In this document: in pieces, positions 5,581-28,251 of the stretch
How positions within the stretch are numbered: the first letter of the stretch is position 1
Layout: each line of letters opens with the position of its first letter
Source: Candidatus Altiarchaeota archaeon
Lineage (GTDB): Archaea; Altiarchaeota; Altiarchaeia; IMC4; SCGC-AAA252-I15
Length of the DNA stretch: 28,251 bases
Assembly (NCBI GenBank): GCA_043813075.1
Contig: JBDRLL010000025.1
Coordinates: 1-28,251 of the forward strand
Reading direction: 5' to 3'
Translations under genes and position numbers: made by a program
The notes under the pieces: model-generated
What the model was told of the DNA's origin: nothing
Databases searched by the model: none
Seen by the model: the letters and a program-made list of their open reading frames with translations, nothing else

Positions 5581-5581
5581 G

Positions 5582-7557: not shown

Positions 7558-7651
7558 TTTAATCGTTCACTCGGATTTAATTCTGGTATGCAATCCATTT
7601 ATACTAGTTGTATCTCATATAATATACTGTTCTTTAATACAGGGTAATAAG

Positions 7652-10034: not shown

Positions 10035-10040
10035 TTTTCA

Positions 10041-11384: not shown

Positions 11385-11469
11385 TTCATAATATACAAAA
11401 TTATTTTTTATAATATCGCTTTTTTTTGTATATTATAATCTGTATTTTATTCTATGTTCTCATATATCT

Positions 11470-11535
11470 CATGTGATGAGCAGCTTTTGCCGAGCTCCTT
11501 ACTGGGGCTGTGACGATGCTTATGAGTGCTGAAAT
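11470..11535 (+). ncRNA. Box C/D 2'-O-methylation guide sRNA, predicted target C34 of tRNA-Met(CAU)
   Basis: Box C GTGATGA 11473-11479; guide GCAGCTTTTG; box D' CCGA 11490-11493; hairpin GCTCC-TTACT-GGGGC; box C' GTGACGA 11510-11516; guide TGCTTATGAGTG; box D CTGA 11529-11532. It is a GC-richer island in an AT-rich intergenic region. Ends are approximate. Confidence 0.85.
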
Positions 11536-11572
11536 AACGCCCTTTAATACCGTTTAAAGCCAATAATCTTAC

Positions 11573-12691: not shown

Positions 12692-12928
12692 ATGGTCTGC
12701 TGTGATAATCCTTTTGCGCTCAGGTTCAAGCTCAGCATCCTAGGTGTCATGCTATCCTTTGCTCTGACTATGGCTGGTTTTATATCGCCTTTCCGTGAGA
12801 TGCTCGTATTATTCCCCCTCACATGGCTGTTCTCATTGATAATACTGATACCCTCCATCGGACTTTATTATGCCGTTAAAGAGGATTTCTGGGCTGAAGT
12901 CATCAATAAGAAGAATAAGTCTACTTGA
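12692..12928 (+). CDS. Small two-TM hypothetical protein
   Basis: ATG directly after the upstream stop; two hydrophobic stretches and a basic tail; fills the gap up to lysA. Confidence 0.6.
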   Translation: MVCCDNPFALRFKLSILGVMLSFALTMAGFISPFREMLVLFPLTWLFSLIILIPSIGLYYAVKEDFWAEVINKKNKST

Positions 12929-14150
12929 GGTCTTCAGGCATCTTCTGCAGCCTATACATGTCTCCTATGGCTTCTCTCTCCCTGATTAAGTCTGTCTTCC
13001 CTTTCCTAACCAGGACTTCCGCGGGCAGGGGCATGCTGTTGTAGTTGCTCGCCATGCTGAAGCCGTAGGCGCCAGCGTTTTCAATCACTATTATGTCGCC
13101 GACTTCTGCTTTAGGCAGGCTCCTACCTCTAGCTAGTATGTCCCCTGACTCGCACAGGTTCCCTGCAATGTCGTAGACTTCTGAAGAGCCTTTCTTGCCT
13201 GCTATCCTCACGTTATGGTATGCGTCGTACATTGCCGGACGTATCAGGTCGTTGAATCCTGCATCAACGTTCACGAACTTCTTTTCCGGGGTCTCCTTGA
13301 CACTGTTGACTCTCGCCAGCAGCACTCCCGCCTCTGCTACGATGAATCTCCCCGGCTCGAACCATACTTCTGGAGCGTATCCTAGCGTGTCTAGTGCCTC
13401 TGTTATTATGTCTGTGTACGCGTCTGCGAATTCGGCTACTGACACCACCTCCTCATCATTGTATCTGACTCCCAGGCCTCCCCCGAGGTCTATGAAGTCG
13501 AGTTCAACGCCCAATTCCTTATTTATTCTGGCGGCGAACTCCATCATCTTGACGGCAGCCTCCTTGAAGCCTGACATGTCTTTCACGTTGGAGCCTACGT
13601 GGCAGTGGATTCCTGAGACTTCTAGTCCCATACTCAACGCTTCTTTCACTGCATTGAATGCGATGTCGTTCTCGAAGTGGAGTCCGAACTTGCTTCCCCT
13701 GAGTGACGTTGAAATCTTAGGATGGGTTTTCGCGTCCACGTCCGGGTTCACCCTGAACGCTATCCTGGCCCCCCCAACCTTCTTTAGTAATCCTATCTCA
13801 GTCGTGTTTCCTACTGTGATGTTTACTCCAGCGTCAACAGCTGCCTTCAGGTCAGACTCGCTCTTGCTGTTGCTGGTGTACATCACGTCTCCCGGGCTGA
13901 AACCGGCTTTTAGCACGGCATCCAGTTCTCCGACAGAGACCACGTCCGCCCCGAATCCTTCCCCCCGTATGAGCCTGAGTACCGCGAGGTTGCTGTTCGC
14001 CTTCACAGCGTAACAGCACTTCACTTTAACAGGGAAGCATTCGAAGGCTTGGCGGAATTCACGGCACCTGGCATGAATCAAGTCCCCGTCATAAACGTAC
14101 AGTGGCGTGCCATGCCTTTCCACCAATTCGATAAGAAGTTTTGACTCCAT
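12921..14150 (-). CDS. lysA: Diaminopimelate decarboxylase
   Basis: GTPLYVYD, YAVKAN (PLP Lys), SKFG, HCHVGS, DLGGG, EPGRFIV, GNLCESGD and GAYGFSMASNYN motifs. ATG 14150 preferred over track start 14177. Confidence 0.96.
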   Translation of the reverse strand: MESKLLIELVERHGTPLYVYDGDLIHARCREFRQAFECFPVKVKCCYAVKANSNLAVLRLIRGEGFGADVVSVGELDAVLKAGFSPGDVMYTSNSKSESDLKAAVDAGVNITVGNTTEIGLLKKVGGARIAFRVNPDVDAKTHPKISTSLRGSKFGLHFENDIAFNAVKEALSMGLEVSGIHCHVGSNVKDMSGFKEAAVKMMEFAARINKELGVELDFIDLGGGLGVRYNDEEVVSVAEFADAYTDIITEALDTLGYAPEVWFEPGRFIVAEAGVLLARVNSVKETPEKKFVNVDAGFNDLIRPAMYDAYHNVRIAGKKGSSEVYDIAGNLCESGDILARGRSLPKAEVGDIIVIENAGAYGFSMASNYNSMPLPAEVLVRKGKTDLIREREAIGDMYRLQKMPEDLK

Positions 14151-14187
14151 TTGTGAAATAATGTTGTATGCTGTCAATAAAAATAGT

Positions 14188-15399
14188 CTATGGTGCGTAT
14201 CTGGTGTCCGCGTATAACCGTCCCATTATGGGTTCAAGCCTGTCGTAGAGGCCACGGCCATAGCTTCTCAGTATGATGGATTCCCCTAGCGTTTCTCTGA
14301 ATTCATTCGAGAGTCTTTCTGATTCGGCAGCCAGGTCCTCCATACCCAACGACCTTGATGTCTGGGCGTTGACCTTCATCATGGCACTGTGCGCGCAGGG
14401 TCTTATAAGGTGGTTGTTGTCAACGTCAACACCTAATTGCATGAAATCCCTCCTTATTACCCCCGGGAGATCTGACACGTGTGTGGTGTATGCCCTAAGG
14501 TACACCTCCATGTTGCTTCTGTCCACTGACACTCCAAGACCTTCCCTGTCCACGTATCTGGACCCTAATTCCATCGCTATCCTGTCTGCCAAAACCTCCC
14601 TCCCGTTCCTGTACATCCAGGCCGGGTCGAACACTGCATCATCCTCGAACTGCCTGAAGTCGACTCTTGGCACGAGAAGGTGTCTTGTTGATACACCTTC
14701 CCTGAAGACTCTCCCCCATTCTTCAAGCATCTTGGATGGTGTGTCCTCCACATCCAGTATTCCCGTCTCATGGTCTGCGATGAAATGACCTATCTCGTGC
14801 GGGAAGATGCGGTTGCGTTTTTCAAATAACTCCCGGAAACCTCTCGAATACCCCATGTTGGCGAATACACTCCCCATGTCTTGTCTCGCCATTTCCCCTC
14901 CACCATACCTCAAACGCAGCTTAGGGTCTAGTCCATCAAGCCGGTAGGCTTTGCAGAAGCCTCTATAGCTTCTCGCTAGCCTCTCATAGTTCTCCCTACT
15001 CCATCCCTTATCCATCACCGCGTCTCCAACAGCCTGTATTATCGTCAAGTCCTCTGGAAACTCGTTTGGAGACGGCTTCATCATTTCTGGGAATTCTTTG
15101 ATGAAGAATATTGCATCACCCAGTTTACCTGCTTTTTCCAAGTCTTCAAGTACGTCAAGAGACGCTGATACCCCCCGCATCCCGGAATTCCTGGGGCTAT
15201 GGTGGTACCTGCCCCACCCGTCCCGTATGTTAGAGAGACACTCGAAAAGCTCTTCCCCAGAACCTTGTTGCCCTGCCTTTTTCACGAAGGCCCTGACCCT
15301 GCCTTCCTCAGGACCGAAGTCCCTAACACCACCAACGGCCTCTGACACTATACGTTGTTCTGGTTGTCTGGCTCCGGGGTCTTGCAGGAGGAAGATCAT
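14188..15399 (-). CDS. Hypothetical protein, possible zinc metallopeptidase (HExxH)
   Basis: 403-aa ORF with IFPHEIGHF and a downstream helix REVLADRIAME that could supply the third Zn ligand. Confidence 0.6.
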   Translation of the reverse strand: MIFLLQDPGARQPEQRIVSEAVGGVRDFGPEEGRVRAFVKKAGQQGSGEELFECLSNIRDGWGRYHHSPRNSGMRGVSASLDVLEDLEKAGKLGDAIFFIKEFPEMMKPSPNEFPEDLTIIQAVGDAVMDKGWSRENYERLARSYRGFCKAYRLDGLDPKLRLRYGGGEMARQDMGSVFANMGYSRGFRELFEKRNRIFPHEIGHFIADHETGILDVEDTPSKMLEEWGRVFREGVSTRHLLVPRVDFRQFEDDAVFDPAWMYRNGREVLADRIAMELGSRYVDREGLGVSVDRSNMEVYLRAYTTHVSDLPGVIRRDFMQLGVDVDNNHLIRPCAHSAMMKVNAQTSRSLGMEDLAAESERLSNEFRETLGESIILRSYGRGLYDRLEPIMGRLYADTRYAP

Positions 15400-15438
15400 G
15401 TTATCATTAATGCAGTGTCTGTTAATATCATGCCCCGT

Positions 15439-16149
15439 CTATTTGCCAAGCCCCTCCTTGGCGCGTCTGAATAGTCCTATCAGCGTCTGGGCTTCTCTTC
15501 CGGATACGAAGGCCCTGCCTATCAATTGTCTTATCGTCTTTTTCGCCAGGTTGTTCTCGTATTCCCTGTCGTATATGCCATCTATCATCCCGTCTATGTT
15601 TTCCAGCAGCACCCTCTTCCTCTCCCCGTCTATCTCGCGGAATTTCCTTCTATCCAGCTTCCTTGTCATCGAGTCTTTAGACAGCTCGTACAGTATCACC
15701 CCCACTGATTGGGCGAGATTAAGTGTGGGATATTCCGGGTTAGCGGGGATGGTGACTTGCAGGTCGCATAACTCCAACTCCTCGTTGAGTAGTCCGTAGT
15801 CTTCGCGCCCGAAAACCAGCCCTATCTTACCCCTGCTTTTTAGGGCGTTGTCCAGCTGCCATGGCATTATGGGGCTGCGGTTGGGGTTGGAGTCCGTGGC
15901 TATCTTAGCTGTTGTGGCGACTAGATAGTCCATCCTCTCCTGCAGTTCAGCCAGGTCCCTGACTTTCCCGGCTTTTTGTAGCACTTCCAGCGCGTGCATT
16001 GATTTCTGCCGCGCCTCACTCCCCAGTTCGGGCGGGTTGACTAGGGTCAGGTTCGTGAAACCGAAGTTCTTCATCACCCTTGCAACCGACCCTATGTTGC
16101 CCTCGTATTTGGGCTCCACCAGGATTATGTGGAAGTTCTCTTGAATCAA
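15439..16149 (-). CDS. trmJ: tRNA (cytidine/uridine-32-2'-O)-methyltransferase, SPOUT family
   Basis: IILVEPKYEGNIGSVARVMKNFG, VFGREDYGLLNEEL and IPANPEYPTLNLAQSV motifs. TTG 16149 preferred from TATA spacing (track start 16170). Confidence 0.9.
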   Translation of the reverse strand: MIQENFHIILVEPKYEGNIGSVARVMKNFGFTNLTLVNPPELGSEARQKSMHALEVLQKAGKVRDLAELQERMDYLVATTAKIATDSNPNRSPIMPWQLDNALKSRGKIGLVFGREDYGLLNEELELCDLQVTIPANPEYPTLNLAQSVGVILYELSKDSMTRKLDRRKFREIDGERKRVLLENIDGMIDGIYDREYENNLAKKTIRQLIGRAFVSGREAQTLIGLFRRAKEGLGK

Positions 16150-16183
16150 CTCATTAATACTTTGAATCAAATACTTTTAACGG

Positions 16184-17734
16184 ATGGATGAGGTCGGGTT
16201 TATCAAGGGTGCGGTCAAGCAGACCGAGTTCAATGTCCTGTTGAGCGACCATAAGATCGGGCGTGGAAGCTACCTGAAGATAAAGCATGACGTATGCGGG
16301 TGGGTGTTGGCTCGCATAGAGACTCTTAAGCGTTACCTGGATGATTTTGACGAGGAGCAGACGATAGCTAGGGTGCGTACAATCGGCTACCGGGAGGGTC
16401 CGAGCGTCGTAATGCCTAAGACGCCGTTTAAGCCCAACGAGAAGGTTTTCATGGCTGATGACCGCATCATAACCAGCGTGCTTGGATTGCGCAAGGACAG
16501 GGACAACTCCATATACCTTGGGCTTCTTGAAGGCCATGACATTCCAGTCTACCTTGACTCTAGGAAGCTTATTGAAAAGCATATGAGCGTGCTCGCGAAG
16601 ACTGGCGCGGGTAAGAGTTATACTGTCGCGGTCATCATCGAGGAGTTGCTGAAGACGGACACTCCGATAGTCGTGATCGACCCTCACGGGGAGTATGGGA
16701 GCCTGTCCATGGAGAACGACGACTATGACTCTATGACAAAGTATGACGTTCAAGTCCACTCCTACTCAAGCCAGATAACCGAGTATGCAGTCAACACCGA
16801 TATTAACGAAAATGCGGAGAAGCTTTCCCTAAAGCCGGACTTCACTGTAATGGACTTGATTGGCTTCATGCCCATACAGTTGTCTGACCGTCAGAAGGGC
16901 GTCCTCTACTCTGCATTGGAGGATCTGGAGCCTGGCCGCTACACGATGAAGGATCTTATCCGGCGTATTGATGAGGAGCCGACTAAGCTGAAGTGGAAGA
17001 TTCTGGAGGGTTTGGAGTCGCTCCAGGTGTCCGGCGTCTTTGACGGCACTCCAGTGGATTACGGTGACCTGGTGAAGCCTGGCAGGGCGGCCATAATAAA
17101 CCTTAAGGGTGTTGACCCCCACGTCCAGCAGCTGGTTGTCGCCAGGATGACTAAAGACTTGTTCGAGCAGGTGAGCATAGGCAGGCTCCCGAAACTATTC
17201 TATCTTGTGGAGGAGGCCCATAACTTCTGTCCTGAACGAGGGTTCGGGAATGTCATGTCTTCCGAGATATTCCGGACTATAGCGTCCGAGGGCCGGAAGT
17301 TCGGCTTCCGGCTTGGCGTTGTCAGCCAGAGGCCTGCCCGCATAGACAAGAACGTTCTCAGCCAATGTAACACCCAGGTGATACTCACTGTCACTAATCC
17401 AAACGACTTGAAGGCCATCGGCCAGAGCATCGAAGGCTTCACGCCTGGCATGGAGGATGAGATCAAGGAGCTCAGAGTCGGTTACGCTATGGTTGTCGGT
17501 GACTGTGTGGAGCAGCCGATTATCGTTGACGTCAGGGCCAGGGAGACTAAGCACGGCGGCAAGTACGTTCCCAAGCCTGGGGACGAGAAGAAGAAGCCCC
17601 CAAAATACGAGAAAAAGAGGCCCGGCCCCAAGGGTTCTAAGGCGGTCATCGAAAAGAGCGGTGGCCTGTTAAAACGCCTTTCAAAGGCTTTCATAGGGCT
17701 TTTTGTGGAGTTCAAGAAAGAAGAAGAAAAATAA
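16184..17734 (+). CDS. HerA/FtsK-family ATPase (HAS barrel plus DUF87-type ATPase)
   Basis: KHMSVLAKTGAGKSY (Walker A), VIDPHGEY, VEEAHNF (Walker B), EGRKFG, SQRPA and LSQCNT motifs. Confidence 0.93.
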   Translation: MDEVGFIKGAVKQTEFNVLLSDHKIGRGSYLKIKHDVCGWVLARIETLKRYLDDFDEEQTIARVRTIGYREGPSVVMPKTPFKPNEKVFMADDRIITSVLGLRKDRDNSIYLGLLEGHDIPVYLDSRKLIEKHMSVLAKTGAGKSYTVAVIIEELLKTDTPIVVIDPHGEYGSLSMENDDYDSMTKYDVQVHSYSSQITEYAVNTDINENAEKLSLKPDFTVMDLIGFMPIQLSDRQKGVLYSALEDLEPGRYTMKDLIRRIDEEPTKLKWKILEGLESLQVSGVFDGTPVDYGDLVKPGRAAIINLKGVDPHVQQLVVARMTKDLFEQVSIGRLPKLFYLVEEAHNFCPERGFGNVMSSEIFRTIASEGRKFGFRLGVVSQRPARIDKNVLSQCNTQVILTVTNPNDLKAIGQSIEGFTPGMEDEIKELRVGYAMVVGDCVEQPIIVDVRARETKHGGKYVPKPGDEKKKPPKYEKKRPGPKGSKAVIEKSGGLLKRLSKAFIGLFVEFKKEEEK

Positions 17735-17775
17735 TGTTTTAAAGTTTAAACATTACTACTTTTAAATATTGTATG
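17732..17775 (+). promoter_or_regulatory. ABC operon promoter: inverted repeat plus TATA box
   Basis: TAATGTTT-N8-AAACATTA at 17732-17755, just upstream of TTTAAATA at 17761-17768; Shine-Dalgarno GGAGGTG at 17806-17812. Confidence 0.5.
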
Positions 17776-17818
17776 TGTTTTTAAATCTATTTGATTAATA
17801 CTATTGGAGGTGGTGGAT

Positions 17819-18847
17819 TTGAAAAAAAGTTATCTCCTATTAACTGTCTCTATGCTAATGCTCTCTCTCATTGGTTGCATTTCACCATCAAGCGAAAAGA
17901 AAAATGAAGTAATCGTGTACACGTCACGTGACAAGTATTTTTCAGAGCCGATACTGAACGACTTTGAAGCACAGACTGGCATCAAAGTAAAGCCTGTCTA
18001 CGATACTGGTGCAACCAAGACTGCCGGTCTCGTGAATCGTATTATCGCTGAAAAGAATAACCCGCAGGCCGACGTCTTCTGGAATTCGGAGACTGGGCGG
18101 ACAATAGTGCTCAAGAAAAACGGGCTCCTATCCCCCTATTTCTCGCCTAATGCCGTGGATGTTCCAGGCCAGTACAAGGATCCTGAAGGCTACTGGACCG
18201 GGTTCGGGGCGAGGGCGCGAGTATTCATCTACAACACGAATCTACTGAATCCAGAAGAGCTTCCTGAATCCCTATTCGACCTTGAGAAGCCTGAGTGGAA
18301 CGGGAGATTCTGTGTTGGGAATGGCTGGCTTGGTACGATGGCAACACACAACGCCGCCCTGTTCCTAACGCTCGGAGACGAGAAAGCCAGGCAGCACTTC
18401 CAGAACCTCAAGGACAACGGAGTCAAGATGCTGGTCGGCAACACAGCGGTAAGAGATGCTGTTAGCGTAGGCGAAGTCCCCCTAGGAATAATAGACACTT
18501 CAGACGCTCAGGAGGCCATATCCTACGGCAAGCCAGTGGCAATAGCATACCCAGACCAGGGTGAAAACCAGGTTGGAGTAATGCTGATACCAAACACGGT
18601 GGCTTTAATCAAGGACGGGCCAAACCCTGAGAACGGGCGGAGGTTCATAGACTACATGCTTAGCAGGGAGATGGAGGAGAGGCTGGCTTTCATGGAGTCA
18701 AGTCAGATTCCATTAAAGCAGGGGGTGCCTACTCCAGACCATGTAAAGACTGCTGGCGAACTCAAGGTCATGGAAGTCGACTTCAGCAAGGTCGCCGACA
18801 AGATGGATGAGTCAAACAAGTTCCTGCTTGATTTATTCACTGGATAA
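17819..18847 (+). CDS. ABC transporter substrate-binding lipoprotein (Fe3+/FbpA-AfuA-like)
   Basis: Lipobox-like LIGC after a hydrophobic core; VIVYTS, FEAQTGIKV, NPQADVFW and FIYNT motifs. TTG 17819 follows the SD. Confidence 0.88.
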   Translation: MKKSYLLLTVSMLMLSLIGCISPSSEKKNEVIVYTSRDKYFSEPILNDFEAQTGIKVKPVYDTGATKTAGLVNRIIAEKNNPQADVFWNSETGRTIVLKKNGLLSPYFSPNAVDVPGQYKDPEGYWTGFGARARVFIYNTNLLNPEELPESLFDLEKPEWNGRFCVGNGWLGTMATHNAALFLTLGDEKARQHFQNLKDNGVKMLVGNTAVRDAVSVGEVPLGIIDTSDAQEAISYGKPVAIAYPDQGENQVGVMLIPNTVALIKDGPNPENGRRFIDYMLSREMEERLAFMESSQIPLKQGVPTPDHVKTAGELKVMEVDFSKVADKMDESNKFLLDLFTG

Positions 18848-18860
18848 AAAGACATAACAC

Positions 18861-20480
18861 ATGGCCGCAGATCACAGGAGCGTTATGCTGCTGGCAGCCT
18901 CGGCGATATTCATCATAGTCGCCCTGATGCCGGTGACATTCCTCCTCTTGGACTCATTCACATCAGACCAGGGACTCAACCTAGCCACCTACCACAGCAT
19001 ACTGTCAAACAAAAGACAGACCCAGTTACTAAAAAATACCATCAAGCTGTCAGTGGCTGTGACAATACTATCCACACTGATGGGAGTCCCACTCTCAATA
19101 CTCCTCTACAAGACAGACCTGCCGCTCCAGAAGATATACAGGATCGCATTCATCTCCATACTCATAGTCCCACCATACATCGGGGCGATAGCATGGATCA
19201 ATCTTATGGGAAGCGCAGGATACCTAAACCAGGCAATTTCAGGCATCACAGGCCTTAAAAGCCCTTTATTCGACATCTACGGCTTCTGGGGTTCAGTGCT
19301 CGTACTCACATTATCCACCTTCCCCCTAGTCGTCCTGCTATCAGGCGGCGCCCTCAACTCGATAGACAAAAACCTTGAGGAGGCGGCCATAATCTCGCGG
19401 GGATACTTGAAGTCAATCACGGCAGTGACACTGCGGCTCGCATCACCAGGAATAACGCTAGGCGCACTACTAGTCTTCATAACCGTCGTCTCAGACTTCG
19501 GGGTGGTGTCATTCCTAACGTACGACACATTCACGATAGAGATATACAGCCAGCTCGCAGCATTCTATGACACCAAAACAGCGACAGCATACTCGCTCGT
19601 ACTAATAGCACTAGCCCTCCCACCCATACTACTCCACACACGCATATACGGCACAAAAACATACACCTCAATATTCAGCGCCACAACCTCTAAAACACTA
19701 AAACTCGGAAAATGGAGGAAGCCCGCGCTAGTGGCCACGACACTACTACTCACCATAAGCTTGATACTTCCACTGTCAACACTAGCATACACGTCCCTAT
19801 TCTTCTACGGCAAGTTCAGCCACATCCAAAACTACCTGACATCACTCAACCAAGGAATGTCCAACATAACAAACAGCCTACTCTACTCACTCGCAGGATC
19901 AACGGCATCAATGATACTCGGCTTCACCATAGCATACGGCCTAAGACAAAAAAACAATACAAACAAAAAAATATTCGACATGGCACTCACACTACCCTAC
20001 ATCCTCCCAGGCACAATAATCGGGCTAGGACTCATCATACTGTGGAACAACCCAACACTCCTCATCTACAACACGCCCATAATAATAATCATCGGCTACA
20101 TGGCAAAATACACGTTTATAGCCTCTAAAACCTCAGAAATCGCTTTGAACAAGATAAGCCGATCCCTAGAGGAGGCGGCTGAATTAACTGGTAGCATGTG
20201 GCACAAGACACTGCGGAAAATCACATTACCCTTATCATCGCCAACACTATCCAATGGATGGATCCTAACATACATACTCTGCATGACCGAACTCAACACG
20301 ACCATAATGGTATACCCCCCCGGCCAAGCAACACTACCTATAAGCTTATACATTCTACAACATGACGGGCCTCCCGGGCTCGTAGCCGCACTGGCGGTCA
20401 CGCTAATCTTAATTACCCTAGCGCCCATAGTATCCCTAACAACCATAAGATGGCTGAAAACCAGAAAATCCTCGAGCTAA
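18861..20480 (+). CDS. ABC transporter permease (FbpB-like, duplicated domains)
   Basis: Multi-pass membrane protein with two EAA loops (LEEAAIISRG, LEEAAELTG). Confidence 0.9.
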   Translation: MAADHRSVMLLAASAIFIIVALMPVTFLLLDSFTSDQGLNLATYHSILSNKRQTQLLKNTIKLSVAVTILSTLMGVPLSILLYKTDLPLQKIYRIAFISILIVPPYIGAIAWINLMGSAGYLNQAISGITGLKSPLFDIYGFWGSVLVLTLSTFPLVVLLSGGALNSIDKNLEEAAIISRGYLKSITAVTLRLASPGITLGALLVFITVVSDFGVVSFLTYDTFTIEIYSQLAAFYDTKTATAYSLVLIALALPPILLHTRIYGTKTYTSIFSATTSKTLKLGKWRKPALVATTLLLTISLILPLSTLAYTSLFFYGKFSHIQNYLTSLNQGMSNITNSLLYSLAGSTASMILGFTIAYGLRQKNNTNKKIFDMALTLPYILPGTIIGLGLIILWNNPTLLIYNTPIIIIIGYMAKYTFIASKTSEIALNKISRSLEEAAELTGSMWHKTLRKITLPLSSPTLSNGWILTYILCMTELNTTIMVYPPGQATLPISLYILQHDGPPGLVAALAVTLILITLAPIVSLTTIRWLKTRKSSS

Positions 20481-21205
20481 AGGGTGTATCCAAGAGTTTT
20501 GGAAAATCGAAAATACTGGAAGACGTAGATTTGACGCTCACAAAAAAACAGATACACGTAATCCTCGGTCCGACAGGCTGCGGCAAGACAACTCTGCTAA
20601 GTCTAATCGCTGGCCTTGAGGATTTGGACAAAGGAGAAATCTGGATAAGAGACAAGCTAATTGCAGACGAGGGAAAAGCAATGTCTCCAAGGGAGAGGGA
20701 TGTTGGCATGGTATTCCAGGACACTGCGGTATGGCCTCACATGACTGTGCGGGAAAACATTGAATTCGCCTTAAAAGGCGGTGAAAACCACTATAAACGC
20801 CTTTTAAACGTTTTGAATCTTGAGAGTCTTGAAGAGAGGATGCCTCACACCCTCTCTGGCGGGCAGAGGCAGTGTGTGGCTATTGCAAGAGCTTTAGCCC
20901 AGAAGCCGTCCATGCTACTACTCGACGAGCCCATGGCAAACCTCGACTGGAGCCTCAAGAAACGGCTTCTAGACCTAATAAAAGTGCTCAAGAAAGAGTT
21001 CGAAGTGTCCATGATATATGTGACCCACGATCAGTTGGAGGCCTTCAGTATTGCTGATGTTGTTACTCTGATGAATCAAGGTCGTGTTGAACAGACTGGA
21101 GTCCTGAATGATTTTTTCAGTAAACCATCTTCAGATTTTGTCTCTGACTTTATCATAATCCCCTCACTACTAAAAGAACTGCAATCAATATCCCCCAAAA
21201 CCTAA
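20450..21205 (+). CDS. ABC transporter ATP-binding protein
   Basis: GPTGCGKT, VFQD, LSGGQRQ, LLLDEP and VTHD motifs; short, with no obvious TOBE domain. Confidence 0.93.
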   Translation: MAENQKILELKGVSKSFGKSKILEDVDLTLTKKQIHVILGPTGCGKTTLLSLIAGLEDLDKGEIWIRDKLIADEGKAMSPRERDVGMVFQDTAVWPHMTVRENIEFALKGGENHYKRLLNVLNLESLEERMPHTLSGGQRQCVAIARALAQKPSMLLLDEPMANLDWSLKKRLLDLIKVLKKEFEVSMIYVTHDQLEAFSIADVVTLMNQGRVEQTGVLNDFFSKPSSDFVSDFIIIPSLLKELQSISPKT

Positions 21206-21281
21206 ACCCTTAAATTACTGCGTTTTAGCTACTAAAACCCATGATATTTTGTATTTAAGTCATGACTGGCTTATATTAACA

Positions 21282-21309
21282 ATCCTTTTTTTTAACAGTC
21301 AAAAAGGAT
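21282..21309 (+). terminator. Possible terminator: T-tract and inverted repeat downstream of ABC operon
   Basis: ATCCTTTTT-N10-AAAAAGGAT containing a T8 run. Confidence 0.3.
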
Positions 21310-21325
21310 ACTAATCTCTCTCTTT

Positions 21326-21519
21326 ATCCTTCTTAAATCTTGAATGCACTAATAATTAATATCCATTAATCTGAAATTCTGAAAATCAAAAATCTTGACT
21401 TATATCCTTCTATATCCTTCTTAAATCTGTGATTCCATATCTTTTATCATAAGTTTCTGAAAGTAAAATTCTGAAAATCTTGATATTTAAAACCTTCTCT
21501 ATCCTTCTTATATCCATTA
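21326..21519. repeat. Degenerate ~88-bp periodic direct repeats in AT-rich intergenic region
   Basis: ATCCTTCTTA at 21326, 21414 and 21501; AAATTCTGAAAATC at 21374 and 21466; AAAATCTTGA at 21389 and 21474; tandem TATATCCTTC x2 at 21401-21420. Confidence 0.75.
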
Positions 21520-21580
21520 GCCCTTATATTATTATCAATATTTGACAGTCAAATACTGGCACTCCGCATCCACCACCAAA

Positions 21581-24500
21581 ATGCGCATTGAACAAGAGAC
21601 TACGATAGGTCCTATAGGTTCTATAATTCGGAGTGGGAAAACTGTTTTAACAGCGCTTTTTCTCGTGTTTTTGTTGCTTCCTGGCCTGGTGGATGCACAG
21701 ACAGGAGCCTGCTGTGTCGGCGACGTCTCATGTAGTGACGGCAAGACCCAGGCGGAGTGTACTGGAATGGGTGGCACCAACTGGTTTGTCAACACGTACT
21801 GCAACACGTACCCCTGCTGTGACCCCCATGCATGCTGCACCGACACCGGCTGCATAATGAAGCCGATAGCCTCTGACTGCCTATCCATCGGTGGTACCTG
21901 GATGGGGAGTGAGGACACGTGCAGCCCTGACCCCTGCCCGCAACCTAAGGCATGCTGTCTTCCGAGTGGTGGATGCTCGAACGAACTGCCAGGGGATTGC
22001 GGAGGGTTGGGTGGGACCTATTTCTCAACCGACACGTGCACAGCCGACCCTCCATTGTGCACGAGGTCAGCGTGCTGTAGGTCTGGTGGAACATGCGACG
22101 ACACTTTTTCTGAACTATGTACTGGAGCAGGAGAGCAATTCTACAATGGGCAGGCGTGTTCTGGAGTGAATTGTCTGCACGCCTGTTGCCATATGGGAAT
22201 ATGCAGTATGAAGACAGAGGCGGAATGCAGTGGAGCCAACTACCAGAAATATGTCGGGCAAACATGCTCTGAAGTGCAGTGTCCTGGAGTATGCTGCGAC
22301 AAGTCTGGCGGCGACGCAGGCACATGCTTCATGACAGATGAGGCTACGTGCGCTCCTGGCACCGACTATGAATGGCATGGGTCACTAACGACATGCACTC
22401 CAAATCCCTGCCCGCAACCAACGGGCTGCTGTGAAGACGGTTCCTGCAGCTGGAAACTCCAAACCGAATGCACGGGAACTATAATCAATACAGACGCTCT
22501 ATCCTGTGCAGGAGTCAACGACCCATGTGAAGAAGTAGCATGCTGTGTTTCAGGGACATGCATCATGAAACGCCGGAGTGAATGCAATGGAGACAGTGTA
22601 CCGATGGAAGGCCACGCGGACTGTTCAACAGTGCAGTGTAACGGAGCCTGCTGTGACAGTGAGGGAGCTAACGCTGGGATTTGTGCTCTCATGTCCGATG
22701 CGGCTTGCCCTGACACTGGACATACATTCCACCAGACATGGGACACGTGCGAACCCAATCCCTGCCCACAGCCGAGTGGCTGTTGTGAGGGAGGTAATTG
22801 CGTCTGGAAATTGCAGACCCAATGTTCCGGTACCGTAATGGGTAGCGTCAATGAGGCACAGTGTGGTGGGGATCCTGACCCCTGTGAAGAAGTGCCTTGC
22901 TGTGACACTGGCACATGCCAGATGAAGCGTCGGAGTGAATGCAACAGAATAGAGGCTGGCGGTAGTTGCAGTGGCGTCGAGTGTACTGGAGTCTGCTGCG
23001 ACAGTAGCGGAGGCAATGCTGGAACATGCGCGATGACAACAGCAAGCGGATGCCCCCCCGGGGATACATTCCACCAGACTTGGACTACGTGCACTCCAAA
23101 CCCTTGTCCACAACCAGGCGGCTGTTGTGAAGGAGACAACTGTGCGTGGAAGCTAATAACAGAATGTAGTGGGGGGCTGATATCAACTACCGAAGCAGAG
23201 TGCGGCGGCGACCCAGACCCCTGCGAACAAGTCCCATGTTGTCATAGCGGCGTCTGCACGATGAAGCGCCGTGCAGAATGCACCAGCAGCGGAGGACAAA
23301 TACAAGCAGGAGGAGACTGCGCCAGCGCACAATGCCCCGGAGCATGCTGCGACAGCGACAACACTGACGGAGGAGCTGGCGGATGCTCAATGGAAAAACC
23401 AGCAGACTGCGGTGCAGGCCACACCTTCCATCAGAACTGGCAGACATGCTCACCCAATCCATGCCCACAATTGAAGGCTTGTTGTGAGGGTGATAGTTGC
23501 GCGTGGAAGCTGGAGGACGAGTGTGGTGGTTTCCCTGTTGGTTTCACAGAAGCTGAATGTAATGCTGCGGAAGATCCGTGTGAAATGGTCCCCTGTTGTG
23601 TGTCAGGTACATGCATCATGCAGCGTAGGGGGCAGTGTACTGGCACAACAAGGAGTGTGATGGACGGGCACGCTGATTGTGGCACGGTCGAATGTCCGGG
23701 TGTGTGTTGTGATGTTGAGGGGGCGGGTATTGGTGGTTGTTCTGTTACCGAGCAGAGTAACTGTCAGGGTGCTGGGGAAGACTTCCACCAGACTTGGCAG
23801 AATTGTAATCCTGATGGAACACCATGTCCACAGCCTATCGGATGCTGTGACGGATTCGGAGAGGACTGCTCGTGGAAATTATCGTCGCAATGTACTGGCG
23901 CGCTGATTGGTGGCATAGACCAAGCCAAATGCGAAGGCGATCCTGACCCATGTGAGATGGTGCCTTGCTGCAGGTCTTCTGGGGTTTGTTCTATTGTCCG
24001 CAGGCGTTTGTGCGAGATTCAAGGCAATACTGTTGTTGAGGGGTCTGATGTTTGTGAGGGGGAGTGTCCTGGTGCTTGCTGTGATTCTGAGGGTGCTGAT
24101 GCTGGGACTTGTAATACAAAGAAGGAGAGTGAGTGCGCTAATCCCGACACCTTCCATCAGACATGGAATTGCGCTGCTGACCCTTGTCCTAAAATGAAGT
24201 CTTGTTGTGAGGGTGAGAGTTGTTCTTGGAAATTGGAGACCCAGTGTACTCCACCAAATATTGTTACTGGTTTTGATGAGGCTACTTGTAATGCTGCTGA
24301 CGACCCATGCGAGATGGTGCCGTGTTGTAAATCAGGTGTTTGCACTGATAAGCGCCGTTATCTCTGCACCCAGCAGGGCGGGACTATCGGTGTTGGCGGT
24401 GACACGTGTGCGACTGCTGAATGTCAGGGTGCTTGTTGTGATGCTGAGGATCCTGGCGCGGGTGATTGTAATCTGAAGAAGGAGAGTGAGTGCGCTAATC

Positions 24501-26353
24501 CTGACGCCTTCCATCAGAACTGGCAGTGTAATCCTGCTAATAATCCTTGCCCTCAGATGAAGGCTTGTTGTGACGGTGACAGTTGCTCTTGGAAGCTTCA
24601 GACGGAATGCACTGCACCTTCTGTTCCTGTCGGTGGTTGGGACCAGGATACATGTAACGCTGACCCTGATCCGTGTGAGATGAAGCCGTGCTGCAAGAAT
24701 GGTGTCTGCACTATGAAGCGACGCAAGTTGTGTGAAGACGATGGTGGTGTGGTCAAGGATGAGGCTGGTTGCGATCCTAACCCCTGTCAGGGTGCTTGTT
24801 GTGATGCTGAGGATCCTGGCGCAGGCGACTGCAATATGAAATTAATGGCTGACTGCGCCGATCCTGACACCTTCCATCAGACATGGCAGTGTGACCCTGC
24901 TAATAATCCTTGCCCTCAGAAGAAGGCTTGTTGTGAGGGTGACAGTTGCGTGTGGAAGTTAGAGTCTGATTGTACTGCTCCTCATACTCCTACTGGGTGG
25001 GATGAGGATACGTGTAACCTTGACCCTGATCCGTGTGAGATGGTGGCTTGTTGTAGTAATGGTGTGTGTACGATGAAGCGACGTAAGTTGTGTGAGGATG
25101 CTGGCGATCAGGTTAAGGATGGTGTTACTTCTTGCGATCCTAATCCGTGTACTGGCGCTTGCTGTGATTCTGAAGGTGATGGTCTCGGTACTTGTGAGAT
25201 GAAGACTTCTGATGAGTGCGGTGACGGCTTTGAATTCCATCAGACTTGGGAGTGTGAGACTGACGGTAAGAAACCTTGTCCGCAGCCTGGCGTATGTTGT
25301 ACTGAAAATGAAGATCCCACGCAACCGAAAGACTGTAGTGTAGTGTTGCTTAGCACTTGCGTTGACGATGGCGGCGCATTCTACTCCAGTAAAAATTCGT
25401 GCGACCCTAATCCGTGCGCGGGTTTATGTCCGCCGTCAGGCGGTGGCTCAGTGTCGTCGGCTCAACCCGCATCCATCCTAGATTCATTGTTCCGTATGCT
25501 TGGTTTTTCGTCTGATCTAGGGGGCATTGCGGAAGAGGCGCCACCTTCAACAGTGAATCTGGATGAATGTAAGTACGCATGTTGCGAATGTGATGGCTCA
25601 TGCAGTGAAAAGACTAAAGATGAGTGTGATGACGTTGATGGTGAAAGACATGAAACCAAGGAATGCAGTGAAGTAACATGCACAACATGCACCAGCAGCA
25701 CAACATCCTCTGCTACTACGTCTTCATCTGAGACTACTTCGTCTTCGGCTACGTCTTCGTCTGAGACTACTTCGTCTTCGGCTACGTCTTCGTCTGAGAC
25801 TACTTCGTCTTCGGCTACGTCTTCGTCTGCGACGACTGGGACTACTGCGACTACTGGCACGACTGCGACTACGGCTACTACTGGTACTACGGCGACTACT
25901 GCGACTACTGCGACTACGGCTACGACTGGTACGACTGCGACTACTGCGACTACGGCTACGACTGCGACTACTGGTACTACTGGTACGACTGCGACTACTG
26001 CGACTACTGCGACTACTGCGACTACGGCTACGACTGCGACTACTGGTACTACTGCGACTACTGCGACTACGGCTACGACTGCGACTACTGGGACTACTTT
26101 GGTGGGTTGTGTTGGTTTTTGTGGTGGTTGGAATTCGGATGAGTTTTGTTTTTGTGATTGTGGTTGTTTGGATGATGATACTTTTTGTTGTGGTGGTGCT
26201 GTGAGTGATTGTAGTCTTGATGTGGTTTGTGCGTCTACTACTTTGACGACTGGTACGACTGGTACGACTGCGACTACTGGTACGACTGGTACAACTATTG
26301 ATTGTAACACTATGTGCATCAACGCCGGATATGCGGGGGGGTACTGTGCATGA
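21581..26353 (+). CDS. Giant secreted cysteine-rich repeat protein (~1590 aa) with Thr-rich mucin-like stalk
   Basis: Signal peptide (KTVLTALFLVFLLLPGLVDA/QT), ~32 CC-C-C-C-C modules, S/T repeats, (TT[A/G])30, SMB-like Cys knot; no C-terminal TM anchor seen. ATG 21581 preferred over track start 21542. Confidence 0.92.
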   Translation: MRIEQETTIGPIGSIIRSGKTVLTALFLVFLLLPGLVDAQTGACCVGDVSCSDGKTQAECTGMGGTNWFVNTYCNTYPCCDPHACCTDTGCIMKPIASDCLSIGGTWMGSEDTCSPDPCPQPKACCLPSGGCSNELPGDCGGLGGTYFSTDTCTADPPLCTRSACCRSGGTCDDTFSELCTGAGEQFYNGQACSGVNCLHACCHMGICSMKTEAECSGANYQKYVGQTCSEVQCPGVCCDKSGGDAGTCFMTDEATCAPGTDYEWHGSLTTCTPNPCPQPTGCCEDGSCSWKLQTECTGTIINTDALSCAGVNDPCEEVACCVSGTCIMKRRSECNGDSVPMEGHADCSTVQCNGACCDSEGANAGICALMSDAACPDTGHTFHQTWDTCEPNPCPQPSGCCEGGNCVWKLQTQCSGTVMGSVNEAQCGGDPDPCEEVPCCDTGTCQMKRRSECNRIEAGGSCSGVECTGVCCDSSGGNAGTCAMTTASGCPPGDTFHQTWTTCTPNPCPQPGGCCEGDNCAWKLITECSGGLISTTEAECGGDPDPCEQVPCCHSGVCTMKRRAECTSSGGQIQAGGDCASAQCPGACCDSDNTDGGAGGCSMEKPADCGAGHTFHQNWQTCSPNPCPQLKACCEGDSCAWKLEDECGGFPVGFTEAECNAAEDPCEMVPCCVSGTCIMQRRGQCTGTTRSVMDGHADCGTVECPGVCCDVEGAGIGGCSVTEQSNCQGAGEDFHQTWQNCNPDGTPCPQPIGCCDGFGEDCSWKLSSQCTGALIGGIDQAKCEGDPDPCEMVPCCRSSGVCSIVRRRLCEIQGNTVVEGSDVCEGECPGACCDSEGADAGTCNTKKESECANPDTFHQTWNCAADPCPKMKSCCEGESCSWKLETQCTPPNIVTGFDEATCNAADDPCEMVPCCKSGVCTDKRRYLCTQQGGTIGVGGDTCATAECQGACCDAEDPGAGDCNLKKESECANPDAFHQNWQCNPANNPCPQMKACCDGDSCSWKLQTECTAPSVPVGGWDQDTCNADPDPCEMKPCCKNGVCTMKRRKLCEDDGGVVKDEAGCDPNPCQGACCDAEDPGAGDCNMKLMADCADPDTFHQTWQCDPANNPCPQKKACCEGDSCVWKLESDCTAPHTPTGWDEDTCNLDPDPCEMVACCSNGVCTMKRRKLCEDAGDQVKDGVTSCDPNPCTGACCDSEGDGLGTCEMKTSDECGDGFEFHQTWECETDGKKPCPQPGVCCTENEDPTQPKDCSVVLLSTCVDDGGAFYSSKNSCDPNPCAGLCPPSGGGSVSSAQPASILDSLFRMLGFSSDLGGIAEEAPPSTVNLDECKYACCECDGSCSEKTKDECDDVDGERHETKECSEVTCTTCTSSTTSSATTSSSETTSSSATSSSETTSSSATSSSETTSSSATSSSATTGTTATTGTTATTATTGTTATTATTATTATTGTTATTATTATTATTGTTGTTATTATTATTATTATTATTGTTATTATTATTATTGTTLVGCVGFCGGWNSDEFCFCDCGCLDDDTFCCGGAVSDCSLDVVCASTTLTTGTTGTTATTGTTGTTIDCNTMCINAGYAGGYCA
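22283..25417 (+). repeat. Intragenic ~360-bp (~120-aa) ABC super-repeat, 8 full copies plus a partial ninth
   Basis: A = G[AV]CCD...FHQ[TN]W..C...PCPQ; B = CCEG..C.WKL...C...DPCE; C = CC..G.C.MKRR..C...C....C. Copies starting near 24425 and 24788 share long stretches of near-identical DNA. Confidence 0.92.
25730..25828 (+). repeat. Perfect 33-bp tandem repeat x3 (ETTSSSATSSS)
   Basis: GAGACTACTTCGTCTTCGGCTACGTCTTCGTCT at 25730, 25763 and 25796. Confidence 0.95.
25829..26098 (+). repeat. 9-bp tandem repeat x30 encoding ([A/G]TT)n
   Basis: Units of the form GSK-ACK-ACK over 270 bp. Confidence 0.95.
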
Positions 26354-27615
26354 GCAGGACTAGTGGTCTACGAAAATTAGGTGGAGAAAACACCAAGGAT
26401 AAGTTCAGAGTAGACTCCCTAAGGTTAAACCAAACCCTATCAATCATACTACTCATTTCCCTAGCCTTAGCGATTTTATATGCATACTACCCCTCTCAAC
26501 CCACCACACCACTAAATAAAACCTATTTCTCAGAACTCTCGAATTATTCCCTTTCAAAAGAAAAGCCAGAATCTATTAATCAATCAATTAAAAGGAGTGC
26601 TGATTTTGTTTCCAAAACTTTCAATGGAACGTCCATACTTTCCATAACCTGCGATCAAAGTGCAGATACATGTGAACTTAAGCATCAGAACTTGACTACC
26701 GCCCATATTGGATGGCTTATCCGAGCGGCAGTCGGACAGTACCAGATACAACCAACAGAAAAGAATCTAGGGGCCGTTAGTGCTCTAATGGACGAGCTAA
26801 TCTCAAGATGCTGGCCATACGGTGAGGGGACGTGTGGTATTGAATTATACAAGCCTTTTGAACGCTGCCATTCTCAACTATCTCACCTTATGATTGGCTA
26901 TGGGGTTACCCAAAAGAAAGAGCATATGGACCACATTAAAAAGATGATGCACTGTAATTTCGATGTATATGGTCTTATGCCTGCTGACGGTTCAACAATG
27001 GACATGGCTTGGCTTTCTATGACTCACTTCCAAGCATATGATATTTGTGAAAACGATCAGAACTACAAGCTTTCAACAGTGTTGGATGAGCAATCAGATC
27101 CGGTGATTATTCTATTAAGTCCTAAGGGTGAGAAAAAATCATGTGATTTCCTTTTAGAACGCGCTGAGCAAGACCTTAATACAGCTAAAAGCAAGGAAAA
27201 TTTCGTTCCTGTGTTATACTCCTACAGTGGTGTTGAACTAAGAGGCTTTACTTGTTTTAGGGTTTTAGCAGAAGCACAGGCTTATGCTTCAACTGGGGAT
27301 GAAAAGTATATCGACAGTGCTGGATTATTCTTAGATAACATAAGATTCAATGAGAGTCTAGAACTTAATTGGGACATGCCTAGCTATCCCCAAGCCATCA
27401 TCCCCTGTATAGAAGCTATGCAGATTCTTGACAAAAGCCAAGATAATTCCAAGTATTCATCTAGTATCAATTCTTTAAAGCAATACTTAGTTGAAAAGCA
27501 CGCTGTTGATGGTCCAATATCTGTCGGTTCATCTGATATTGGTATTAGAACCTACAACATCCCCGACAACTCTTGGTTCATTTATGTCATGTCTATCGAG
27601 GTGGGAAATGAATAA
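26350..27615 (+). CDS. N-terminally anchored extracellular protein, possible (alpha/alpha) toroid (six-hairpin glycosidase-like fold)
   Basis: ATG 26350 overlaps the upstream TGA (ATGA). TM helix LSIILLISLALAILYAYY; many sequons; recurring hairpin-type motifs (QYQIQPTEKNLGAV, GYGVTQKKEHMDHI, QAYASTGDEKYIDSA). Confidence 0.75.
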   Translation: MSRTSGLRKLGGENTKDKFRVDSLRLNQTLSIILLISLALAILYAYYPSQPTTPLNKTYFSELSNYSLSKEKPESINQSIKRSADFVSKTFNGTSILSITCDQSADTCELKHQNLTTAHIGWLIRAAVGQYQIQPTEKNLGAVSALMDELISRCWPYGEGTCGIELYKPFERCHSQLSHLMIGYGVTQKKEHMDHIKKMMHCNFDVYGLMPADGSTMDMAWLSMTHFQAYDICENDQNYKLSTVLDEQSDPVIILLSPKGEKKSCDFLLERAEQDLNTAKSKENFVPVLYSYSGVELRGFTCFRVLAEAQAYASTGDEKYIDSAGLFLDNIRFNESLELNWDMPSYPQAIIPCIEAMQILDKSQDNSKYSSSINSLKQYLVEKHAVDGPISVGSSDIGIRTYNIPDNSWFIYVMSIEVGNE

Positions 27616-28251
27616 AAAATTCATTTTACTCTCGGTTTTGTTTTTATGCATCTTACCTCCAGATTCATCTGCTTTGTGCGGGGAATGTAATCCACTGGCT
27701 TGTACTGCCTCTTGCCCAGGTGGAGCTTGTTATTGTGATGATTTTGGCTGTAGTGGTGGGGAAGAGCAATGTGTTGGTTCTGTAGGTGGGTGTGGTCCTC
27801 CATTAGGCCCTCAATGTCCAACTCTCAGTCAACCTCTATGTGGTCCTGGTGAGGTAAGGCAAGATATTCTTCCATGTCACTGCACTAATTGTGATAATTA
27901 TCTAAATCAGTGGATCTGTGTAACTACGTCAAGCACCACGACTACTACAAGTACTACAACCACCGTCACTACGGCTACGACTGGTACGACTGGTACGACT
28001 GCGACTACTGCGACTACTGCGACTACGGCTACGACTGCGACTACTGCGACTACGGCTACGACTGCGACTACTGGTACTACGGCTACGACTGGTACGACGG
28101 CTACTACTGCGACTACTGGTACTACGGCTACGACTGCGACTACGGCGACTACTGCGACTACTGGTACGACGGCTACGACTGCGACTACGGCTACTACGGC
28201 TACGACTGCGACTACTGCGACTACTGGTACGACTGCTACTACTGGTACGAC
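27608..28251 (+). CDS. Second secreted Cys-rich protein with (TT[A/G])n stalk (runs off the window; absent from ORF track)
   Basis: Manual translation from ATG 27608 (overlaps upstream stop): MNKKFILLSVLFLCILPPDSSA-LCGECNPLACTASCPGGACYCDDFGCSGGEEQCVGSVGGCGPPLGPQCPTLSQPLCGPGEVRQDILPCHCTNCDNYLNQWICV-TTSSTTTTTSTTTTVTTATTGTTG..., open to the edge. Confidence 0.9.
   Translation, partial: MNKKFILLSVLFLCILPPDSSALCGECNPLACTASCPGGACYCDDFGCSGGEEQCVGSVGGCGPPLGPQCPTLSQPLCGPGEVRQDILPCHCTNCDNYLNQWICVTTSSTTTTTSTTTTVTTATTGTTGTTATTATTATTATTATTATTATTATTGTTATTGTTATTATTGTTATTATTATTATTGTTATTATTATTATTATTATTGTTATTGT
27974..28251 (+). repeat. 9-bp tandem repeat (~30 or more units) encoding ([A/G]TT)n
   Basis: Same GSK-ACK-ACK unit as 25829-26098; continues to the window end. 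Confidence 0.95.

Follow-up and report, generated by a model that had tools for sequence, protein, structure and literature searches.

A candidate cell-surface gene cluster for Cys-rich, Thr-stalked exoproteins and a membrane-anchored (alpha/alpha)6 barrel protein in a member of the Altiarchaeota

The window analysed here, 28,251 bp long, corresponds to the complete contig C25 of a metagenome-assembled genome (MAG) of Candidatus Altiarchaeota archaeon (genome label G000; 1.8 Mb, 41 contigs, 89% complete). Its right end is filled by three co-oriented genes on the forward strand, g1, g2 and g3. With moderate confidence, these are read as an operon-like cell-surface module of stalked, Cys-rich adhesin or matrix proteins (g1, g3) and a membrane-tethered barrel partner (g2).

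In this module, g1 and g3 would be exported and their six-Cys or otherwise Cys-rich domains stabilised by disulfides; cross-linking between molecules may also occur. The Thr-rich stalks, probably O-glycosylated, would space the Cys-rich domains away from the cell, and both proteins would likely serve as adhesin or matrix components. The g2 protein would sit on the outer face of the membrane, as a member of a family dedicated to Cys-rich stalked neighbours. Most likely it would act on or hold the sugar-bearing part of g1 and g3 by trimming, transglycosylation or tethering, the substrate and the catalysis being presumed.

Gene order and domain architecture

An earlier note on this DNA had described three co-oriented genes joined by start/stop overlaps, two of them for Cys-dense signal-peptide proteins with a common (Thr-Thr-Ala/Gly)n stalk. 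Both descriptions were borne out. Gene g1 extends over 21581-26353 (+; 1590 aa) and g2 over 26350-27615 (+; 421 aa; stop TAA at 27613-27615). The TGA of g1 and the ATG of g2 overlap by 4 nt (ATGA, 26350-26353). Gene g3 starts at ATG 27608 (+) inside g2, with an overlap of 8 nt, and its reading frame is open to 28251. Hydrophobic 19-aa windows (Kyte-Doolittle value of at least 1.6) are N-terminal only, with window starts at 14-28 in g1, 24-32 in g2 and 5-7 in g3. No paralogues of g1, g2 or g3 were found elsewhere in G000. The features are as follows, with the basis of each assignment in brackets; repeats were located with Tandem Repeats Finder (TRF), and HMM stands for hidden Markov model.

21581 to 21700, forward strand: g1 signal peptide, residues 1-40, with a hydrophobic core ending VDA before QTG (translation, hydrophobicity)
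21701 to 25480, forward strand: g1 array of six-Cys CC modules, 32 units delimited by Cys-Cys (CC) doublets (spacing, self-match, period, homologues)
25481 to 25714, forward strand: g1 linker and one further CC unit, with its CC at residue 1334 (Cys map)
25715 to 26098, forward strand: g1 stalk A, in which a Ser/Thr-rich 33-nt repeat is followed by (Thr-Thr-Ala/Gly)n of 9-nt period (TRF, composition)
26099 to 26353, forward strand: Cys-rich knob at the C-terminus of g1 (residues 1507-1590), containing a short Thr-Gly tract; the g1 stop overlaps the g2 start (translation)
26350 to 27615, forward strand: g2, predicted membrane-anchored (alpha/alpha)6 barrel, anchor at about residues 24-50 and barrel helices at residues 76-415 (family HMM, model, hydrophobicity)
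27608 to 27925, forward strand: g3 signal peptide (residues 1-22) and Cys-rich head (residues 23-106) (translation, hydrophobicity)
27926 to 28251, forward strand: g3 stalk B, (Thr-Thr-Ala/Gly)n, ending at the contig end (TRF, translation)

The repeat with the 9-nt period was located at 25827-26098 in g1 and at 27968-28251 in g3 (TRF), and stalks A and B have a 51-nt exact match in common. The third gene had also been noted as absent from the track of open reading frames (ORFs), which is explained by its position: g3 is cut by the contig end. Since C25 ends inside the stalk and no other contig of the assembly has a Thr-Thr-Ala repeat at its end, the 3' part of g3 is missing from the assembly.

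Cys accounts for 7.5% of g3 overall, and nearly all of it lies ahead of the stalk, in the 84-residue head. In Pfam, g3 matched no family at E-values (E) up to 1. Its head gave no BLASTP match at E 1e-3 to the downstream proteins of the other g2 loci described below, and shuffle z-scores against the eight neighbour proteins were at most 2.1. A motif that appeared common to the g3 head and other downstream proteins in a three-sequence alignment was ruled out by these BLASTP searches and shuffles.

Recurrence of the barrel gene beside genes for Cys-rich exoproteins

Whether homologues of the middle gene lie beside genes for Cys-rich secreted proteins had been set as a test in advance. Ten loci with strong g2 homologues were available, including three contigs from a metagenome scan for the g2 family (L023, L024 and L025). 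Two loci (G015:C155 and L023) are uninformative, the contig ending at the gene. The eight informative loci are G000, G016:C10, G017:C31, G017:C42, G015:C67, G003:C182, L024 and L025. In every one of them, the barrel gene is adjoined by a co-oriented gene whose product has a signal peptide and 4.7-13.2% Cys, at distances from a 26-nt overlap to a 27-nt gap. As background, 76 of 1380 G000 ORFs of at least 150 aa (5.5%) encode at least 4.5% Cys.

Most of the neighbours carry Ser/Thr/Pro-rich tracts, such as (TTG)n in G016, poly-Thr in L024 and (SP)n in L025. Their heads are mostly non-homologous to each other, to g1 and to g3. The conserved element is therefore the combination of a Cys-rich domain and a stalk, not one inherited gene pair.

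The barrel loci of the relatives also hold pilin-like genes and genes for a VWA protein, a beta-helix/NHL protein and GT2/GT4 glycosyltransferases. Judged by these gene contents, the g2 loci of relatives are a cell-surface setting. Pilin-like N-termini, resembling class III signal peptides by eye, were seen at L017 613-1077 and 8857-9537, L018 6411-7130 and L006 4760-7891; one gene with such a start beside the barrel loci encodes a 1043-aa VWA-domain protein. A second small family lies beside the barrel gene in G017 and G003 (L006 2925-4691, L019 1495-3423); its members have about 5% Cys, an N-terminal anchor and repeated Cys-containing motifs. The barrel protein of G000 is referred to as P0002, the G016 copy as P0004 and that of G017 as P0005. 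The N-terminus of P0005 is extended by a stretch of repeats that, by eye, resemble those of the second small family.

Cys-rich array, stalk and knob of g1

Cys makes up 210 of the 1590 residues of g1 (13.2%). Six Cys are present in 29 of the 32 array units, with the spacing CC-x4-11-C-x7-8-C-x8-14-C-x3-7-C. Eight complete A-B-C triplets of about 120 aa each span residues 238-1193. Aligned with itself, the array gives 49% identity across 1222 aa, and a 363-nt period with 81% matches at the DNA level (TRF) marks the youngest copies. The stalk (residues 1376-1506, 131 aa) consists of 54% Thr, 20% Ala and 18% Ser, a composition that fits a mucin-type, putatively glycosylated tract. The Cys-rich knob has 84 residues, and g1 has no C-terminal hydrophobic segment.

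No model in Pfam (E up to 1) or NCBIfam was matched by any part of g1, and a sequence search for solved-structure relatives of the CC module found none (best E 0.59). Homologues of the module were found in 312 proteins of 874-2783 aa at E of at most 1e-3 (best E 1.2e-67), and the alignments of g1 to bacterial CC repeats stay in register across many repeats. Organism names were attached to 24 of the 120 listed matches, and all 24 are bacterial: 13 Candidatus Eisenbacteria, seven Phycisphaerae/Phycisphaerales and four Planctomycetota. The nearest ESM Atlas clusters to the g1 module are unnamed Planctomycetota clusters. From its homologues, the Cys module of g1 is a bacterial-type exoprotein repeat.

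Module and spacing are equal in g1 and in the repeats of Planctomycetota (including Phycisphaerae) and Candidatus Eisenbacteria; the use made of them differs. In bacteria the module is usually an appendage, often fused to peptidases (S8, M12, C10), beta-helix proteins or multicopper oxidases. In g1, by contrast, it forms the whole 1260-aa head and is set on a Thr stalk, in an archaeon.

As a separate observation, g1 has no N-x-S/T sequon in its 1590 residues, despite 55 Asn and 20% Ser+Thr. Shuffled g1 sequences had 10.5 sequons on average and none of 500 shuffles lacked them, an effect that is overstated, the repeats being non-independent. The g2 protein carries seven N-x-S/T sequons.

Family and fold of g2

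The N-terminus of g2 is positively charged and has one hydrophobic segment, and an N-terminal hydrophobic segment is present in 68 of 71 aligned relatives. The protein is predicted to be N-terminally anchored with its bulk outside the membrane. A word-based homology search with P0002 returned only P0002 itself, and one with a family alignment (A2) scored only two proteins; both outcomes are uninformative on the range of the family. With a profile of three Altiarchaeota g2 copies, 252 representatives were recovered at E of at most 1e-3 and 30 at E of at most 1e-30 from 1.84 billion proteins. Named members include a Woesearchaeota MAG and an unclassified bacterium. Against a family HMM built without it, P0002 scored E 4e-46 (141 bits, residues 28-390). 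By this score, G000 g2 is a true yet divergent member of an unnamed family.

Structure was predicted with AlphaFold2 from the 71-sequence alignment and gave 12 helices (predicted local distance difference test, pLDDT, 80; predicted template modelling score, pTM, 0.78). An earlier model on a three-sequence alignment (pLDDT 46) was discarded. In a Foldseek search of the PDB, GH88 (3wiw) and GH76 (4v1s, 6shm) structures came first, with template modelling (TM) scores of 0.47-0.57, and every listed match at E of at most 0.001 (ranks 1-10) was to a six-hairpin structure of GH88 or GH76 type. The ESM Atlas model of g2 aligned to GH76-type clusters (TM 0.56-0.60). The g2-family profile matched GH76 Aman6 at E 2.3e-8, over profile positions 106-257 only. 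Weak Pfam matches among the 71 members were to GH88 (21 members), GH127 (21) and GH76 (10; best E 6.4e-6). By model and profile, the g2 family is a distant, unnamed branch of six-hairpin (alpha/alpha)6 glycosidase-type proteins that has no Pfam or NCBIfam model. The earlier description of the middle protein as membrane-anchored and enzyme-like agrees with the N-terminal anchor, the modelled (alpha/alpha)6 fold and GH88 and GH76 as nearest folds.

The residues conserved in the family are W122, Q179, R224/E225, W303, E355, W386/D387 and D406. In the model they are located at or just before the starts of even-numbered helices. In six-hairpin enzymes, the pocket is located at the even-numbered helix starts.

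Assignment to two known families was considered. GH76 enzymes have an adjacent catalytic Asp-Asp pair, and the PDB titles of the GH76 fold matches mention D124/D125-type mutants. The pair is not conserved in the g2 family and P0002 has no PF03663 match, and g2 was rejected as a GH76 member. For GH88/GH105, P0002 had no match to PF07470; the GH88 matches among the relatives are weak, and the fold match to 3wiw has TM scores of 0.47/0.53.

Conserved Cys and disulfide formation

In the 71-sequence alignment, Cys154 and Cys173 are both present in 44 sequences and both absent from 27, and no sequence has one alone. Cys302 and Cys353 are both present in 70 sequences; the one sequence without Cys302 is also without Cys353, and again there are no singles. 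This pattern favours three disulfides among the six conserved Cys, which would behave as all-or-none pairs.

Two candidates for extracytoplasmic disulfide formation are encoded in G000. On contig C32 (L034 1372-1974) lies the gene for a DsbA-like protein of 200 aa that has a CPYC motif and, at its N-terminus, a hydrophobic segment. Contig C27 (L035 493-2331) encodes a membrane-anchored protein of 612 aa in which two domains (CPFG, CPYG) are thioredoxin-like. No VKOR homologue was found in G000, at 89% completeness. Judged from the DsbA-like exoproteins together with the covarying g2-family Cys pairs, G000 can make extracytoplasmic disulfides. The DsbA-like gene on C32 adjoins a gene for a metal-binding-type membrane protein.

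The Cys pairs bear on two rival explanations. In the first, g2 would be a LanC-like or GH127-like thiol enzyme that uses Cys302/Cys353 as a zinc site or nucleophile, for example to form thioether links to dehydrated Ser/Thr. GH127 enzymes have a Cys nucleophile and a zinc Cys3-Glu site, and LanC-like cyclases have a Cys-Cys-His zinc site in the LanC fold. The two nearly invariant Cys are located at adjacent inner-helix starts, 51 residues apart; GH127 is among the weak Pfam matches, in 21 of the 71 members; LANCL2 is matched weakly (E 0.0022, with no stretch passing alone); and the neighbouring proteins are rich in Cys, Ser and Thr. Against this, the all-or-none pairs 302/353 and 154/173 of the sequence alignment fit structural disulfides. 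There is no LanC structure among the listed fold matches, and no dehydratase is encoded in the cluster. Because the Cys pairs covary, the notion that g2 has a Cys nucleophile or a zinc site was put aside, and a thiol enzyme of this kind is regarded as highly improbable. The LanC-like cyclase was rejected as a candidate on the weak LANCL2 match, the listed folds and the covariation of Cys302/353.

The second explanation is that the Cys modules bind metals or minerals through free thiols in an anoxic, sulfidic habitat and that g2 serves this function in some way. An even Cys count with a CC doublet would suit such a role, and the domains joined to the bacterial module include multicopper oxidases and NosD-like beta-helices. 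Six Cys at fixed spacing, on the other hand, usually signify three disulfides. In the exported g2 family the Cys pairs covary like disulfide partners, G000 encodes DsbA-like exoproteins, and the bacterial module occurs mostly in fusion with peptidases and adhesin-like domains. Altiarchaeales are described in PMC4975002 from the anoxic subsurface and sulfidic springs, and disulfides might not persist in habitats of the kind described there. Metal binding through free thiols is considered decidedly improbable, and disulfide-stabilised domains in a surface module are preferred.

Objections and rival explanations

Several observations weigh against a dedicated surface module, and they are gathered here. 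The first concern distribution. By the family profile, strong g2 copies occur in only five of 60 other Altiarchaeota genomes. The taxon-known loci all belong to Altiarchaeota of one family and hence are related and not independent; the other two are unplaced metagenome contigs. The g1-g3 cluster is, moreover, one instance of a lineage habit and not unique; it is set apart by the barrel gene. Most of the 76 Cys-rich G000 ORFs have signal-peptide-like starts, and 11 also have a tract of at least 60% Ser/Thr over 40 aa. Examples of giant Cys-rich exoproteins are C6:103594-110531, C19:42636-52907, C40:4841-12394 and C33:54323-59479. A search with a 238-aa query gave no match to the CC module in any of the 60 other Altiarchaeota genomes, one of which is of the same genus (84% complete).

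The second group concerns the assembly. The g1 head is tied to the knob, g2 and g3 only via stalk A, and the stalk A repeat, common with stalk B of g3, could mislead an assembler at the head-to-knob join. Composition shifts as well. GC content at third codon positions (GC3) is 0.57-0.68 in the housekeeping genes (2506-21205) and 0.49 in the last gene of an ATP-binding cassette (ABC) transporter. The g1 head has a value of 0.48, the knob 0.29, g2 0.38 and the g3 head 0.25. The Cys codons TGT and TGC are used at 102:95 in the g1 head, 12:1 in the knob, 7:3 in g2 and 12:4 in the g3 head.

It could be, then, that g1, g2 and g3 are unrelated neighbours, or that the g1 head was misjoined in the Thr-Thr-Ala repeat, in a genome whose many genes for Cys-rich exoproteins mimic a system. 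The 76 Cys-rich ORFs and the 11 with Ser/Thr tracts speak for this, as do the 51-nt match between the stalks, the composition shift across stalk A and the lack of CC-module matches in the 60 other Altiarchaeota genomes. We regard it as improbable. The knob-g2 and g2-g3 junctions overlap and are on unique sequence, so g2 is flanked by stalked Cys-rich genes in any case, and the knob-g2-g3 unit stands whatever holds for the g1 head. The pairing in all eight informative loci exceeds the 5.5% background, and contigs from two sequencing runs bridge the junction of stalk A and knob.

The sequencing-run evidence consists of low-depth, short Logan contigs, some of which are identical to parts of the g1 head and come from a run labelled biofilm metagenome. 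Among the Logan contigs listed, no piece spans stalk A from unique head to knob, and 26975-27751 (parts of g2 and of the g3 head), 21277-21794 (g1 start) and 25421-25679 are without Logan contig cover. There were no RNA runs among the sequencing runs listed for the locus.

The third group concerns g2 itself. P0002 alone matched no Pfam or NCBIfam glycosidase family at E up to 1. In the HMM alignment to the g2 family, the GH76 Asp-Asp pair coincides with an insertion of 9 residues and with a weak column that is variable among the family members. At 17 positions conserved at 80% or more in the family, G000 g2 keeps 11, including all six Cys, W122, D387 and D406, and departs at six (H179, M224, F303, V386, S395 and V413); position E225 is Thr. 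Because these family-conserved positions are lost, G000 g2 may be inactive or of changed specificity.

The main rival explanation follows from here: g2 may be non-catalytic, a receptor, anchor or chaperone that holds or folds the anchorless Cys-rich stalked proteins. g1 has no C-terminal hydrophobic segment and matched no sorting-signal family, and hence needs a tether to stay on the cell; g2 is itself membrane-anchored. Six of the 17 family residues are lost, including the Arg-Glu pair and Gln179, and the GH76 catalytic pair is absent from the whole family. The relatives, in turn, keep a polar pocket (Q179, R224, E225, E355, D387, D406) that is more typical of catalysis or sugar binding than of docking, and the heads and knobs of the neighbours are non-homologous between loci, which argues against a specific protein-protein lock. 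A predicted complex of the g2 ectodomain with the g1 knob scored 0.00 with the knob poorly folded and weighs neither way. A purely non-catalytic g2 is considered unlikely, and a surface module with a glycan-directed barrel partner is still the preferred reading.

Comparison with known systems

The g2 protein resembles the GH76 alpha-1,6-mannanases (Bacillus circulans Aman6, Bacteroides BT2949) in being an (alpha/alpha)6 barrel that is extracytoplasmic, envelope-tethered and, presumably, associated with glycoproteins. Aman6 is the best sequence-profile match to the g2 family among solved structures, and GH76 is among the top fold matches. The family differs from GH76 in that the match is partial, the Asp-Asp pair is absent and it has its own residue set (Q179, R224, E225, E355, D387, D406) and three covarying Cys pairs.

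The GH88/GH105 unsaturated glucuronyl/rhamnogalacturonyl hydrolases provide the top Foldseek match (3wiw) and weak Pfam matches in 21 of the 71 members, and one g2 relative is automatically named YesR. They differ from g2 in that TM scores are 0.45-0.53 at 8-12% sequence identity and no polysaccharide lyase is encoded nearby.

The fungal GH76 members Dfg5 and Dcw1 tie mannoproteins into the cell wall and, by analogy, may be the closest functional counterpart of g2. Carried further, the analogy would make the g2 family a dedicated maturation or anchoring transglycosidase for the anchorless Cys-rich stalked proteins of Altiarchaeota and DPANN-type archaea: acting on stalk O-glycans, it would fix these proteins to one another or to the envelope. 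It would be an archaeal counterpart of Dfg5/Dcw1 with D387, D406, E355 and R224/E225 as the catalytic set. This specific proposal is speculative and rather unlikely as it stands.

Haloarchaeal S-layer glycoproteins have an O-glycosylated Thr-rich stalk beside the membrane anchor. Like them, g1 is a predicted surface protein of an archaeon and has its Thr-rich stalk close to the C-terminus; unlike them, it has a Cys-rich head and a C-terminal Cys-rich knob. No C-terminal transmembrane helix was found in g1, and NCBIfam gave no match to PGF-CTERM or another sorting-signal family; the C-terminus of g3 is absent from the contig. S-layer-type anchoring of g1 was rejected, there being neither a C-terminal hydrophobic window nor a PGF-CTERM match.

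The earlier note had likened the cluster to mucins. Cys-rich domains, a Ser/Thr stalk, export and synteny uphold the likeness; mucin domains do not, since g1 and g3 have no vWD, C8, TIL, CysD or cystine-knot domain (no Pfam matches at E up to 1). With gel-forming mucins and with the diatom protein CaFAP1, which is described in a preprint as a mucin-like adhesive (bioRxiv 10.1101/2023.03.06.531300), g1 and g3 have in common that they are secreted and combine Cys-rich domains with low-complexity tracts of the Pro/Thr/Ser type. Gel-forming mucins have alternating tracts, whereas g1 and g3 each have a single stalk.

Literature on Altiarchaeota, DPANN, Planctomycetes and mucin-like archaeal proteins, searched by title and the start of the abstract, yielded no account of either the barrel/Cys-rich pairing or the CC module. 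Hami and biofilm genes are discussed by Bird et al. 2016 (PMC4975002); the word cysteine is never used in the accessible part of that text.

Upstream region and neighbouring genes

The left 21 kb of the contig hold ordinary archaeal genes, for example a split transketolase, a CDC48-like ATPase and the ABC transporter. g1 is preceded by an AT-rich spacer of 375 bp, most of which is filled by one repeat feature:

21312 to 21530, no strand assigned: three direct repeats of about 88 bp, with spacings of 88 and 87 nt (family D1)

This repeat-filled spacer may be a putative regulatory region. Shorter repeats, AAATTCTGAAAATC, occur twice within the 88-bp direct repeats. Rfam and tRNA scans of the window gave no matches.

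About 11 kb upstream of the cluster, genes for an NTP_transferase (7652-8500), a PMT_2 GT-C glycosyltransferase (8379-10034) and a PGM/PMM protein (10041-11384) lie side by side. The PMT_2 match scores 37.5 bits against a cut-off of 26.1. As judged from these family matches, the three genes are a candidate set for sugar activation and O-glycosylation of proteins, and could be a source of O-mannosylation for the stalks.

Biological significance

By analogy, the cluster may be viewed as a surface glycoprotein locus with a glycosidase-like partner, in a layout that would work like a mucin or adhesin with its partner enzyme, outside the mucin families. To our knowledge, almost nothing is known about the surface proteins of Altiarchaeota that lack hami. 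The Altiarchaeota include biofilm formers with unusual cell surfaces, as described in PMC4975002.

Two families without models are worth naming, the widespread extracytoplasmic six-hairpin family with its 252 representatives and the six-Cys CC repeat, a bacterial-type repeat that here makes up a whole giant protein in an archaeon. The conserved pairing of the six-hairpin family with Cys-rich stalked exoproteins is a testable item. If glycoproteins are indeed processed or anchored by the g2 family, it would represent a new family of glycan-acting enzymes and would also provide a handle on how small-genome archaea build adhesive surfaces in anoxia.

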